From a virus: a DNA stretch of 64,000 bases. Made by a program: the position numbers and the translations under genes. The stretch covers positions 35,181 to 99,180 of IMG/VR virus record IMGVR_UViG_3300048583_000034, one strand, 5' to 3'. Below the pieces are notes generated by a model. It was not told the origin of the DNA, ran no database searches, and saw only the letters and a list, made by a program, of their open reading frames with translations. Positions 466 through 49,466 of this stretch are shown in pieces. The number at the start of each line of letters is the position of its first letter. Within the stretch, counting starts at the first letter, position 1.

Positions 466-1011
466 ATGTATATGGAAGATTTATTCTTTATACAGAACGG
501 TGTCAGAAGACGAGCAAAAGAAATTGAATGTGGTCATTGTAAAAATAAATTTCTTACTAGATTAAACGCAGATACAAAATACTGTAGCAGAACTTGTAAT
601 GGTGCTAGTATCAAAACTTCGATAGAGTTGGAATGCTACGAATGCAAAAAGAAATTTGAACGAAATAAATATAAAGCCGAAAATGCCAGTAAACATAACT
701 TTCATTTCTGTTCTCGTTTATGTAAAGAAAAAGCACAGAGTTTAAAAGGTTCATGTATAGAAATAAGACCGCCCCATTATGGTGAAGGAAACGGGAAAAA
801 TTCATACAGAAAGTTGGCATTTAAATCTTTTGAGCATAAATGTAATAGGTGTGGATATAATAAAATTGTTGAAGTTTTACAGGTCCATCACAAAGATAAA
901 AATAGAGAACATAATGTAGTAGAAAATTTAGAGATATTATGTCCGACTTGTCACATGGAATTCCATTTCATTGATTCGAGTGGGCTATGGGGGATGGGAT
1001 TGCTGGGGTGA
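466..1011 (+). CDS. HNH homing endonuclease with Zn-finger N-terminus
   Basis: CxxC pairs; VHHKDKNREHN...LCPTCH; TAAATA at 461. Confidence 0.9.
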   Translation: MYMEDLFFIQNGVRRRAKEIECGHCKNKFLTRLNADTKYCSRTCNGASIKTSIELECYECKKKFERNKYKAENASKHNFHFCSRLCKEKAQSLKGSCIEIRPPHYGEGNGKNSYRKLAFKSFEHKCNRCGYNKIVEVLQVHHKDKNREHNVVENLEILCPTCHMEFHFIDSSGLWGMGLLG

Positions 1012-1152: not shown

Positions 1153-1302
1153 ATGGAGATACCATCAATTAATATTGATGGTAGACCACGTAAATTGAAG
1201 GCTAATTGGGGAGTAGATATCGAGAAAGACTTGATGTTGATGATGAGTATAGATATACAACAAGAGATAGATCGAGAGATAATTAATAAAATGGCTGGGT
1301 AG
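1153..1302 (+). CDS. short ORF resembling a segment of T4-like major capsid protein (possibly frameshift-fused to ORF 1067-1198)
   Basis: RKLKANW...EIDREII resembles gp23 RQLKAAY...EINREVV (recalled). Confidence 0.55.
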   Translation: MEIPSINIDGRPRKLKANWGVDIEKDLMLMMSIDIQQEIDREIINKMAG

Positions 1303-1366
1303 ACCAACGGTAGGAGTCAAGGGTCTTAGAAGCCCTCCAGTGTCGGTTCGAATCCGACCCCAGCTA
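1293..1366 (+). tRNA. tRNA-Leu(TAG), short variable loop
   Basis: AGGGT-CTTAGAA-GCCCT; T arm GTCGG-TTCGAAT-CCGAC. Confidence 0.88.
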
Positions 1367-1371
1367 CATAA

Positions 1372-2064: not shown

Positions 2065-2796
2065 TTACCCCCAATACCCTCTGGGTGGTTTGGTCAACCC
2101 TAATTTCTTAATATGTTTCTCAACAGCTTTATCGCTAACCCCTAATTCCTTCGCTATCTTAGTTGTTGGTTTACTCCACAATAATGATTTTAATTCCTCT
2201 GAGGAGGGCCAAATTATCTTTTCTCTTTTGGGGCCACGGCATTTGTTGCAAGACGTTGATAGTTTATGTTTTTTCTCACCACAATCACATAAAGTAATTT
2301 TCTTATTTTTTTTGCCAGCATATGAAGAAGTTTGTGTATGACAATTTGGACAAAGAAAACACAAGTTTTCTAAACGGTTATCGTTCGATATTCCATTTAT
2401 ATGTTCCAGTTGTAATGATAGTTGTTCGCCTAACCAAGATCCATCGTTGGAACATTTAACACATTTATAATCTACCAATTCAAATTTTACTAAATAAAGT
2501 TTAAGATTATATCTATTTCTTTCAGAGTTTTCAACCAACCAATTTTTAATAAAGTCTTCTTTTGACAATTCTCTCGTAAGATTCGATGCGTCTATTCTGG
2601 AAAGAAAATGAGAAGTTTCTAGATTCAGCTCAGATACTCTCTTTTTAACAATATGGAAGTTGTTTCCTTTGTTCTGTAAACCAAAATAATTCAAAACATC
2701 TTTCATGGATTTACTAGTTGCAACTAATTCGATAAATTTTTCATCTTCTAATTTCCAAATTTTTGATCTCTTCGCTCTTGATTTTATGGTAAGCAT
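2065..2796 (-). CDS. HNH homing endonuclease with C-terminal HTH
   Basis: LQLEHINGISNDNRLENLCFLCPNCH; TAAATA upstream. Confidence 0.92.
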   Translation of the reverse strand: MLTIKSRAKRSKIWKLEDEKFIELVATSKSMKDVLNYFGLQNKGNNFHIVKKRVSELNLETSHFLSRIDASNLTRELSKEDFIKNWLVENSERNRYNLKLYLVKFELVDYKCVKCSNDGSWLGEQLSLQLEHINGISNDNRLENLCFLCPNCHTQTSSYAGKKNKKITLCDCGEKKHKLSTSCNKCRGPKREKIIWPSSEELKSLLWSKPTTKIAKELGVSDKAVEKHIKKLGLTKPPRGYWG

Positions 2797-7681: not shown

Positions 7682-8131
7682 GTGAAGATGCAATTAGTAA
7701 AGATTAAACTAATCCACCCGGATGCTAAGGTTCCATTCAGACACCACAACAACGATGCTTGTTATGATTGTGTTGCTGTGGGTAAGACAGACATGGGTAA
7801 TGGTATTATCAAGTATGACTTGGGATTTGCTCTGGAGATCCCAGAGAACACACAAGTAGATTTCAGACCGAGATCATCCGTATATAAAACTGGTCTATCC
7901 CTAAGCAACTGTATTGTTACAGGAGATGAAGGATACCGTGGTGAATATATGGTGGTATTCTATCATGTTCTACCACAACTTCCAGCTTACGAAATTGGTG
8001 ATAGGATTGTTCAGATGCAAATTAGAACAAGAGAAGACTGTGTTTTTGAGATCGTGGAAGAAATGTCTGACTCTAGTAGAGCGACAGGTGGATTTGGTTC
8101 TACGGATTTACTAACCCCACCGACTAAATAA
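7682..8131 (+). CDS. dut: trimeric dUTPase
   Basis: RPRSS, DEGYRGE, GDRIVQ, RATGGFGST. Confidence 0.92.
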   Translation: MKMQLVKIKLIHPDAKVPFRHHNNDACYDCVAVGKTDMGNGIIKYDLGFALEIPENTQVDFRPRSSVYKTGLSLSNCIVTGDEGYRGEYMVVFYHVLPQLPAYEIGDRIVQMQIRTREDCVFEIVEEMSDSSRATGGFGSTDLLTPPTK

Positions 8132-35153: not shown

Positions 35154-35441
35154 TTATACAGTATAGAATTTATCGTCTTCGATGATTTGCCCATTGAGAA
35201 TAGGCACACCTTTCACCGTATGAATGCTCACACCGGGAATACCATTAAGTCTTTCGCGGGTGGTCTTAGTATTCCAACCAGCAAGAGAGACCTCAATTTT
35301 ATCACCAGACTTCAAAGCAATTAGATTATCGTGGAGATAGTATCCGACATTGTGACGAGTCACATTAACTTCAGTATTATCAGATTTAAAATTGCATCCC
35401 TTTAGAAAGGCTTCGACAGCTTCTTTGGTAATCTTTCTCAT
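35154..35441 (-). CDS. conserved phage hypothetical protein
   Basis: MRKIT..LHDNLIA..GWNTKTTRERLN; start reassigned using promoter. Confidence 0.75.
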   Translation of the reverse strand: MRKITKEAVEAFLKGCNFKSDNTEVNVTRHNVGYYLHDNLIALKSGDKIEVSLAGWNTKTTRERLNGIPGVSIHTVKGVPILNGQIIEDDKFYTV

Positions 35442-37820: not shown

Positions 37821-37910
37821 TGGTTCATGTGAGGAGAATTGAACTCCCGTATACCTTGTAAGGGCTTTCCATTTATAAAACAGAGACTCTGACCACTGAG
37901 TTACACATGA
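37821..37910 (-). tRNA. tRNA with TAT anticodon (Ile) and long variable arm
   Basis: TCTGT-TTTATAA-ATGGA; 19-nt V region with CCTT/AAGG stem; CCA. Confidence 0.75.
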
Positions 37911-37917
37911 CATTTTG

Positions 37918-38025
37918 TGGGACCGCTTGGATTCGAACCAAGGACCAAGGGTTTATTTTAAACTATCTCAATTTAATGCGATAGCTCCAAAGAGACCCCT
38001 GCTCTAACCACTGAGCTACAATCCC
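37918..38025 (-). tRNA. tRNA-Ile2/Met(CAT) or Lys(CTT) with 35-nt hairpin insertion in anticodon loop
   Basis: Intact acceptor, D and T arms; 42-nt anticodon loop. Confidence 0.75.
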
Positions 38026-38287
38026 TTTAATATCAGTTAACTCGTATTCGTGTCATACGACTATATTACTCTAGTGTTTAAAGAATCCACGTTCAACCAT
38101 TTTACATGATCGAATCTCTTTAAACCCATCTGATCGTTTCCAATCGCGAACAGTAGCGCCACCACCCAGAGGTGATAGTTCTACTTTACCATCACACACA
38201 TAACAATAATCCCAGTGAATAGGATGATCTTCTGGTAGGATTTCTTCTCCTTCTAATATGCCTTCGAGAATCATATGATTATTATTT

Positions 38288-38399
38288 TGGTATGCGCGGT
38301 GGGACTCGAACCCACAGATTACAGATTTTTTGGAATGGATTCTAATTAAGTATCCACTCGGAAAAAGTCTGCTGCCTATACCAATTCGGCTACGCGCAC
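38288..38399 (-). tRNA. tRNA-Leu(TAA) with 35-nt hairpin insertion in anticodon loop
   Basis: GCCGAATTGGTATAGGCAGCAGACTT[35 nt]AAAATCTG; CCA. Confidence 0.8.
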
Positions 38400-48888: not shown

Positions 48889-49466
48889 TGGTGTCCGGGT
48901 ATACTCGTCATTATTGAGGATTAAGATTTATCTATTCTTTCCTCGCAGACGCCGAACCTTTATGAGAGATTGGATGGAATCGAACCACCGACGTTGCAAC
49001 ATCCCTAACTACCATCTTCCACATAATTGAGTTGCAACTCGCATATGTATGCATTAGGACAATCCCTTTATTTTAAATAGGTAGGTCGCCACTCCTACTT
49101 CCCTTTCTCTTGATCTTTGGGGATTACTACTGGACTAATATCAAGTGTCTTCACCACTACATAAGTATGTCTCCGCTCGCATGAGGAATACGTCCTCGCC
49201 TAAACTTAGCTTCCACACTGCTATTTAAAATAAATCTATAATGATTAAGTGAGCAGGAATTGAACCTACAACGAACGATACATAATCGTTTTCAGGAATA
49301 ACATATCACCAGTGCCGACCCCAATGTATATTACCTTTATCCCGTCCTGTATTGATATACAACCACTCTCCAATAATGGTATCACTTAAAGAAGCATGTG
49401 TTGGAGTCGAATCCAACATCTCACGGATACTATCCGCCCGTCTTAAGAATTTAAACGAACACGCTT
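48889..49466 (-). ncRNA. cluster of 4-5 tRNA-like RNAs (acceptor + T-arm retained)
   Basis: T-arms GGTGG-TTCGATT-CCATC, GTAGG-TTCAATT-CCTGC, GTTGGA-TTCGAC-TCCAAC next to terminal stems. Confidence 0.65.

Follow-up and report, generated by a model that had tools for sequence, protein, structure and literature searches.

The virus record IMGVR_UViG_3300048583_000034 (IMG/VR) is a 99,180-bp contig of a T4-like phage. Its final 64 kb (positions 35,181 to 99,180; 37.6% G+C), hereafter the window, carry two tRNA genes, for tRNA(CAU) and tRNA-Leu(UAA), each of which is interrupted within the anticodon by a 35-nt hairpin. According to sequence alignments, both inserts lie precisely at the 34/35 boundary. 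Five related phages, the proteins of which are 50-70% identical to those of the window, have inserts at this position as well, and the family consists of at least eight split genes in six assemblies. Substitution patterns show that the tRNA bodies and the hairpins alike have long been under selection. We give an even chance to the reading that the inserts are genuine short tRNA mini-introns removed by proteins, with cut sites specified by the tRNA body together with the hairpin foot, and with the exons sealed by the phage RNA ligase 1 set.

Split tRNA genes and their relatives

The tRNA(CAU) gene (37918..38025, minus strand), which may specify either an elongator tRNA-Met or a lysidine-type tRNA-Ile2, does not encode the CCA end. 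The tRNA-Leu(UAA) gene (38291..38399, minus strand) is of a short-variable-loop type, and CCA is encoded at 38288-38290. Both genes match the Rfam tRNA family RF00005 over its full length, with scores of 56.2 and 53.1 bits, respectively (gathering score 29), and 38-39 unaligned bases fall within each anticodon loop. All four arms are intact in both tRNAs, and the anticodon loops measure 42 nt. ARAGORN, run in intron mode, reports a 35-nt intron in each gene, although its anticodon guesses differ; once the insert is deleted in silico, it calls standard tRNA-Leu(taa) and tRNA(cat), both in the window and in all relatives tested. The initial annotation, which had described two tRNAs with intact arms, 42-nt loops and 35 extra bases each, was thus borne out by two programs. 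ARAGORN identifies 28 tRNA genes on the contig, and none of the other 26 is interrupted.

Insert borders were obtained from intron-less homologues of both tRNAs, found in contigs of three freshwater metagenomes. These contigs are DNA of other organisms, and define borders while being silent on splicing. The alignment gaps correspond exactly to 37957-37991 and 38330-38364. Each gap is 35 nt long with zero slack, leading to the junctions CUC/AUAA in tRNA(CAU) and CUU/AAAA in tRNA-Leu(UAA). Because the homologues align with exact 35-nt gaps and the orthologues agree, both inserts are assigned to the 34/35 site. In tRNA(CAU), the 5′ exon (37992..38025, minus strand) ends with C34 and the 3′ exon (37918..37956, minus strand) starts with A35, as supported by the homologues and by the consistency of three orthologues (the window gene and those of relatives G001 and G007). 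In tRNA-Leu(UAA), the 5′ exon (38365..38399, minus strand) ends with U34, which is the sole junction giving a 7-nt loop with UAA, and the 3′ exon (38291..38329, minus strand) starts with A35, as in the intron-less homologues. The junctions had been placed after base 34 from the outset, with a CUU (Lys) anticodon retained as an option for tRNA(CAU). The CUU reading would give CUU, CUU and CUC across the three orthologues, while the 34/35 junction gives CAU in all three.

The 21-nt D-arm of tRNA-Leu(UAA) was found in 65 viral loci, which mostly encode tRNA-Leu (UAA, UAG, GAG, CAA) with an unusually short variable loop. At two of these loci, the anticodon arm is identical to that of the window after the 35 nt behind U34 are dropped. 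A widespread phage tRNA-Leu family featuring these four anticodons (loci L003-L067; window 1293-1367 and 38291-38399) is of class I shape, having a variable loop of 4-5 nt in place of the long arm, and a few long-armed members share its D arm.

Beyond the record G001, relatives were recruited by using a profile of a neighbouring 112-aa protein, for which 22 homologues were found, and 37 further loci were obtained. A single-protein search with a 269-aa neighbour did not find relatives. The 112-aa protein had no match in GenBank phages by tblastn, and none in a scan of genome contigs. Public runs containing any of the window sequence are freshwater metagenomes only (three DNA runs, with small shares of the window). 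The 196,721-bp record G001, which is 96% complete, is syntenic with the window, and the shared proteins are 34-74% identical. It carries a tRNA trio in the same order as the window, namely Leu(UAA), where the insert measures 39 nt, tRNA(CAU), where it measures 35 nt, and tRNA(UAU). The G003 and G004 (100% complete) phages have a Leu(UAA) gene with a 38-nt insert, identical in the two, and G005 has a Leu(UAA) gene with a 44-nt insert; the CAU tRNAs of all three are uninterrupted. Both genes are split in G007, which features a 38-nt Leu(UAA) insert unlike that of G003 and G004, and a 35-nt tRNA(CAU) insert. Leu(UAA) is uninterrupted in one more distant relative. Comparison of the pre-tRNAs with GenBank phages by blastn returned single exon-sized matches only, and no cultured carrier of the 34/35 hairpin class. 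A pattern derived from the conserved apex of the CAU insert matched five unrelated palindromes and one true relative.

The CAU insert is 35 nt long in all three lineages. The Leu insert is 35 nt long in the window, and 39, 38, 38, 44 and 38 nt long in the relatives. Judging from these lengths, the equal size of the two window inserts is a fixed property of the CAU intron and a coincidence for the Leu intron. The ruler-like length initially proposed for both therefore stands for the CAU insert, and fails for the Leu insert, which ranges from 35 to 44 nt. The TTT...AA ends noted as common to the two window inserts are not conserved either, as inserts in relatives start with UUU, UCU or CUU and end with A, G or C.

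Folding of the whole pre-tRNAs places a hairpin atop the anticodon stem in both genes, with z-scores of -4.3 and -4.8 relative to shuffled sequences. Folded alone, the window inserts score -3.8 (CAU) and -4.7 (Leu), and all eight inserts are hairpins (z from -3.5 to -5.0). A stem had been noted in both inserts at the outset, and both pre-tRNAs fold far better than shuffled sequences. Variable and unstructured inserts in relatives had been named as an observation that would speak against the initial annotation; the inserts found in relatives are structured, covarying and located at the same site.

From its base upwards, the CAU insert (37957..37991, minus strand) comprises 2-3 junction pairs, a purine-A mismatch, an 8-bp stem and a small apex that is conserved. 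Within the junction, base 1 of the insert is paired with A35 in the 3′ exon, base 2 with the final base of the insert and base 3 with the next-to-last. The second pair is U-A, U-A and C-G in the three lineages, and thus corresponds to a double change. In this register, cutting at the junctions would mean severing the 5′ side at the helix foot and the 3′ side one pair further in; a single base pair would lie between the cuts, which would have a 1-nt 5′ stagger. The Leu insert (38330..38364, minus strand) consists of a 5-nt leader, an 8-bp stem, an AU-rich apex and a 3-nt tail. In Leu-type genes, where the 5′ side is U-rich and the 3′ side A-rich, a slippery junction helix can form in four genes and is absent in the fifth (G007), and the hairpins have no common sequence. 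Features common to all eight genes are the distances from the anticodon stem (3 nt and 4 nt) and a hairpin stem with a 4-7-nt leader (mostly 4-5 nt) and a 2-3-nt tail. The hypothesis that the apical loop may serve as a substitute anticodon loop was discarded, as apical loops range from 5 to 13 nt and are not conserved between genes.

Selection on the tRNA bodies and hairpins

In the three CAU pre-tRNAs, 99% of the structure cells are standard pairs, and 15 of the 34 pairs show double-sided changes, which are present in every tRNA stem. None of 500 shuffled controls reached any of the five measures used, and pairing falls to 34-54% when partners are slid by one to three columns. The insert helix contains 13 pairs, all of them formed in each of the three sequences, with four double and three single changes. 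Five cells of this helix are G-U pairs, which pair only in the tRNA-sense strand, indicating that selection acts on the RNA and not on duplex DNA. The insert is conserved about as much as the exons (25 of 35 and 51 of 73 positions, respectively), and its apical part is nearly invariant over the three lineages.

The Leu exons of the window and of G001 differ by seven double and two single compensatory changes, and no pair is broken. All 16 differences at paired positions are compensated, and a single difference is found in 32 unpaired positions. The anticodon-loop halves, CUU/AAAA and CUC/AUAA, show no change in any of the eight genes, and those of the CAU type are invariant even though they lie within an unpaired 3x3 loop. 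Apart from the split gene, neither G001 nor G004 has a tRNA-Leu, whatever the anticodon. UUA and UUG account for 47% of the leucine codons on the contig.

Since compensatory changes accumulated without broken pairs, the two genes are selected genes rather than decaying pseudogenes. Early annotators often labelled interrupted tRNAs as "pseudo", and broken tRNA genes or an assembly artefact could in principle account for the inserts. We regard this as hardly credible, because the same site is occupied in eight genes from six independent assemblies, and no stem pair is broken over 50-70% protein divergence; the covariation counts already contradict it.

Proposed route of removal and rival explanations

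A hairpin located inside the anticodon, and too small to splice itself, must be removed by proteins for the tRNA to work. The site between U34 and A35 of tRNA-Leu(UAA) is, notably, the classic site of cyanobacterial group I introns. The inserts had been judged far too small for group I introns, and this holds: they are 35-44 nt long, and Rfam searches for the group I core (P3-P9) in the window and in the loci of relatives returned tRNA matches only. Moreover, in the CAU type the 5′ junction is preceded by C34 in place of the U that would form the U-G wobble of P1, and the required terminal G is not conserved, as both window inserts end with A and that of one relative with C. A 215-nt "intron" predicted by ARAGORN in other loci has no Rfam group I match either.

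The bulge-helix-bulge motif, in which a 4-bp helix is bordered by two 3-nt bulges, one on each strand, that receive the cuts, could not be drawn, because nucleotides 29-32 are unable to pair with the 3′ end of the insert. In the folds, the hairpin is preceded instead by either a 3x3 internal loop or a U/A junction helix, in agreement with the early remark that no clear motif of this kind is visible. The EndA endonuclease (PF01974) is absent in seven related records, two of which are 96-100% complete, aside from one 13-bit non-hit. Combined action of RNase P and RNase Z was rejected as well: the 5′ junction, at the foot of a 12-layer helix, resembles an RNase P site, but the 3′ junction falls one pair within this helix and does not follow a discriminator base. 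Neither insert is a repeated mobile element, as blast searches identified no further copy on the contig.

Host RNase III might also be considered, as the hairpin continues through the junction pairs into the anticodon stem, giving a long and almost unbroken helix that the enzyme could cut and a ligase reseal. RNase III leaves 5′-phosphate and 3′-hydroxyl ends, which ATP-dependent ligases seal directly. However, the register fixed by covariation calls for a 5′ overhang of 1 nt, whereas RNase III leaves a 3′ overhang of 2 nt, and the stagger is thus off by three positions. Any pair of cuts of the RNase III type would result in a 5-, 8- or 9-nt loop or in a wrong anticodon, and the Leu gene of G007 has no junction helix. 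We consider RNase III-type mini-introns very unlikely.

With group I and bulge-helix-bulge introns set aside, and with inserts that are structured and covarying, the protein-dependent route suggested at the start is still the best explanation. The transcript of each gene would be a pre-tRNA with the 35-nt hairpin opening the anticodon loop at 34/35, and a host or phage endonuclease would cut before and after the hairpin. This enzyme would probably choose its sites by measuring from the anticodon stem (3 nt to the 5′ cut, 4 nt to the 3′ cut) and from the hairpin base (4-5 nt before, 2-3 nt after). The two exon ends, held by the tRNA body, would then be healed and sealed within the 7-nt loop by the T4 gp63-type RNA ligase 1 of the clade, along with the neighbouring kinase and phosphoesterases. 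The predicted products are a tRNA-Leu(UAA) suited to the commonest leucine codons of the phage, and a tRNA(CAU). Tentatively, this might represent protein-catalysed tRNA splicing in viruses of bacteria, in which a body-measuring endonuclease excises the 34/35 hairpin and T4-type repair enzymes act as the splicing ligase.

The enzymes that could seal the exons were identified in the relatives. G001 encodes a 360-aa ligase of the T4 gp63 (RNA ligase 1) family, which matches PHROG 562 over residues 33-354 (E-value 2e-36). The ligase motifs KxDG, EG and KxK are visible in the translation. The N-terminal 243 residues match PF09511 with 44.8 bits, but the full-length protein (L119 3479-4561, minus strand) is dropped by HMMER filters, and a PF09511 search of the genomes missed it as well, so that family searches can silently lose it; phmmer did not match it directly to the solved T4 enzyme. 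Next to the ligase gene are genes for a P-loop kinase (a weak match to polynucleotide kinase), a histidine phosphatase and a phosphoesterase. Homologues occur in G003, G004, G005 and G006. In G003, the gene is in two pieces about 1.27 kb apart (101556-101816 and 103083-103988, corresponding to residues 1-87 and 59-360), which suggests an inserted element or a duplication. A second, 463-aa ligase of G001, also found in G003 to G005, has an N-terminal OB domain and is distantly related to T4 Rnl2 (Rnl2/Rnl5-like); its gene adjoins that of a PTH2 peptidyl-tRNA hydrolase. For an unknown 233-aa ORF of the ligase cluster, the Atlas provided no lead. Judged by gene content, the clade is equipped to heal and seal a broken anticodon loop, as T4 is, and this capacity is permissive, not specific.

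Several observations weigh against splicing by this route. We infer the cutting and rejoining of the RNA, as well as the enzymes responsible; no public RNA run containing this phage was found, and no candidate splicing endonuclease was found. The geometry of the cuts, which flank one base pair with a 1-nt 5′ stagger, fits no known enzyme. RtcB, Rnl1, Rnl2 and P-loop polynucleotide kinase had no match in the 99 kb available for this phage, which correspond to an estimated 48% or so of its genome, and RtcB, Tpt1, EndA and RNase III are not encoded in the complete relatives. The ligase set is not intron-specific: T4 uses it for tRNA repair, and has no tRNA introns. To our knowledge, protein-dependent tRNA splicing has not been established for any bacterium or phage.

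The main rival explanation, which we find unlikely but take seriously, is that the hairpins are never removed, and that tRNA-shaped RNAs with a masked anticodon perform another job, for instance as decoys for or in resistance to anticodon nucleases, in binding of a synthetase or modification enzyme, or in supplying leucine for non-ribosomal use. The failure to find a splicing enzyme or a known splice motif is in line with this view, as is the sequence conservation of the CAU apex in three lineages, which would be expected for a protein-binding site. The Leu form could also be charged unspliced, since LeuRS does not read the anticodon, as established for leucine identity in E. coli, and other odd tRNA-like RNAs are present on the contig. 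A non-decoding role is, however, hard to reconcile with the preserved anticodon halves: such an RNA needs no exact 3+4 loop halves with the anticodon of its own family, which are kept in all eight genes, and two near-complete relatives have no other tRNA-Leu. Furthermore, a decoy for anticodon nucleases should expose an intact loop, and the Leu hairpins share no sequence. A variant that is attractive, though we hold it improbable, couples splicing to defence. A 34/35 anticodon nuclease of host or phage would cut 3′ of nucleotide 34 and 5′ of nucleotide 35, freeing the hairpin, and repair enzymes would join the exons, such that the tRNA is made only when the nuclease fires. The only features invariant in the eight genes are indeed positions relative to the anticodon stem, and relatives possess the set of Rnl1, kinase and phosphoesterase. 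For colicin E5, zymocin and RloC, the target is 34/35 or a neighbouring bond, and T4 Pnkp and Rnl1 mend the resulting ends. Yet no such nuclease was found, the known ones depend on specific anticodons or modifications not present in these tRNAs, joining would recreate a substrate, and the scheme is purely inferential.

The inserts may alternatively be selfish or protective DNA, in which a small palindrome destroys the target of a homing endonuclease in the anticodon-coding DNA and persists because the tRNA is either dispensable or spliced. This would explain the origin of the inserts, not their removal. HNH endonuclease-like ORFs are present in the tRNA cluster of the window, at 466-1011 (plus strand) and 2065-2796 (minus strand), and an HNH homologue lies directly beside the split-tRNA trio in G001 (L059 7264-8058, plus strand). 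Introns that guard against a free-standing homing endonuclease are known in T4-type phages. On the other hand, neither insert has another copy on the contig, the G-U pairs and the pattern of compensation point to selection on the RNA strand rather than on duplex DNA, and the tRNA bodies are clearly under selection. We see little likelihood in this explanation.

Neighbouring genes and comparison with known systems

The third member of the conserved trio is a tRNA(UAU) gene (37821..37910, minus strand; Rfam 51.2 bits) with an unusual 19-nt variable arm, found also in G001, where the long-armed gene follows the two split tRNAs directly, at about 8040-8130 (minus strand) of L059. In more distant relatives, tRNA(UAU) has a normal 75-nt form (L087), and long-armed CAU tRNAs of about 90 nt occur at comparable places (L080-L082). 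A copy of a recurrent promoter-like box, followed by a -10-like hexamer, is located 54 nt upstream of tRNA(CAU) (38063..38079, minus strand). The box occurs in 45 copies in the window, 39 of which are on the minus strand. This copy is probably used for transcription. A 67-aa ORF (38071..38274, minus strand) separates the two split tRNAs, and matches no Pfam or PHROGs family. Because G001 has no such ORF between its tRNAs, it is probably not part of the mechanism. The ORFs surrounding the two tRNAs similarly have no match in Pfam and PHROGs.

Elsewhere in the window, genes were identified for a CCA-adding enzyme with an HD domain, NAMPT, PRPP synthetase, a UvrD-type helicase, a 2H phosphoesterase, a Kyanoviridae Gp96-like protein, and the HNH endonuclease-like ORFs interspersed with tRNAs. 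A run of tRNA-like elements is found at 48889-49466 (minus strand); one of these has the first seven acceptor-stem bases of the split tRNA(CAU) and a different core. A tRNA of the amber-suppressor type (anticodon CUA) maps to the main tRNA cluster of the contig, outside the window (contig positions 31513-31584), and TAG ends 4 of 77 long ORFs.

Other tRNAs interrupted in the anticodon loop were noticed in further phages and contigs. The cultured T4-like Aeromonas phage Aeh1 carries a 105-nt gene annotated as "tRNA-Glu UUC" (AY266303.2 114904-115008; L118 7-111), with a 28-nt insert in the anticodon loop. The insert is a perfect 10-bp hairpin with a tetraloop, and the gene would encode Arg(UCU), Arg(UCG) or Leu(UAG), depending on the junction. 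This tRNA provides a culturable test system. A 373-kb phage with Rnl1- and Rnl2-type ligases has a tRNA (CAU or CUU) with a 20-nt hairpin insert (L002 8759-8851, minus strand). In an unrelated phage, a GOLLD RNA is located among tRNAs, beside a tRNA with an insert of about 50 nt (L001 8137-8588 and 9238-9360). A Leu-like tRNA of a metagenome contig (L071 12917-13013, minus strand) has a 50-nt anticodon loop and a 43-nt insert, and its halves rebuild no obvious 7-nt loop.

As far as we know, self-splicing introns are the only tRNA introns accepted for bacteria and their viruses, and protein-dependent tRNA splicing is regarded as a hallmark of archaea and eukaryotes. If excision by proteins is correct, these phages would provide a third domain-level setting for enzymatic tRNA splicing, phage RNA ligase 1 would gain a routine job beyond damage repair, and tRNA repair and tRNA splicing would be one toolkit. 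The inserts would also offer a route to a new RNA endonuclease with a simple, portable recognition rule, and maturation of a key phage tRNA could be timed or gated by a phage or host anticodon nuclease. The proposal is directly testable with a synthetic gene and cell extracts.

No paper describing short hairpin introns inside the anticodon, or a mechanism for phage tRNA introns, was found in the literature, which includes one report of introns in phage tRNA genes. In Lak megaphages, "enigmatic" introns were described in tRNA genes, for instance a 93-nt intron located after the anticodon, and another that may itself encode a tRNA (Devoto et al. 2019, PMC6784885). Lak introns and the present inserts are similarly non-ribozyme, located in the anticodon loop of otherwise intact phage tRNAs, and conserved between related phages. 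Here, non-ribozyme inserts that covary were found in the anticodon loop of eight genes from six assemblies. In contrast to Lak introns, they are simple hairpins of 35-44 nt inside the anticodon (34/35), found in T4-like lake phages, with covariation and a defined ligase context.

The inserts share with the group I intron of cyanobacteria and plastids the same tRNA-Leu(UAA), the same insertion point and a bacterial-type tRNA; group I introns occur in the anticodon loops of further bacterial tRNAs as well. That intron, located between U34 and A35, is roughly 200-300 nt long, whereas the present inserts, at 35-44 nt, have no catalytic core, are preceded by C at the CAU junction, and in several cases end with A or C. 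Archaeal and eukaryal tRNA introns are likewise short, ribozyme-free and located in the anticodon loop, and the cut-then-ligate concept proposed here is theirs. Choice of the site by distance from the tRNA body would resemble that of the eukaryal enzyme. Unlike those introns, which are processed by EndA/Sen and by RtcB or Trl1, the phage inserts have no bulge-helix-bulge, are found at 34/35 and not at 37/38, and occur in a clade whose complete members encode no EndA, RtcB or Tpt1. A parallel for the sealing step is the repair of the anticodon loop in T4, in which the cut made by PrrC is mended by Pnkp and gp63. Relatives carry a gp63-family ligase beside a kinase and phosphoesterases, and sealing is proposed to occur within a 7-nt loop, as for Rnl1. 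In T4, however, the set repairs damage inflicted by a host nuclease at 33/34 of tRNA-Lys, in a phage devoid of split tRNA genes, while in the present phages the same type of ligase would act in splicing.

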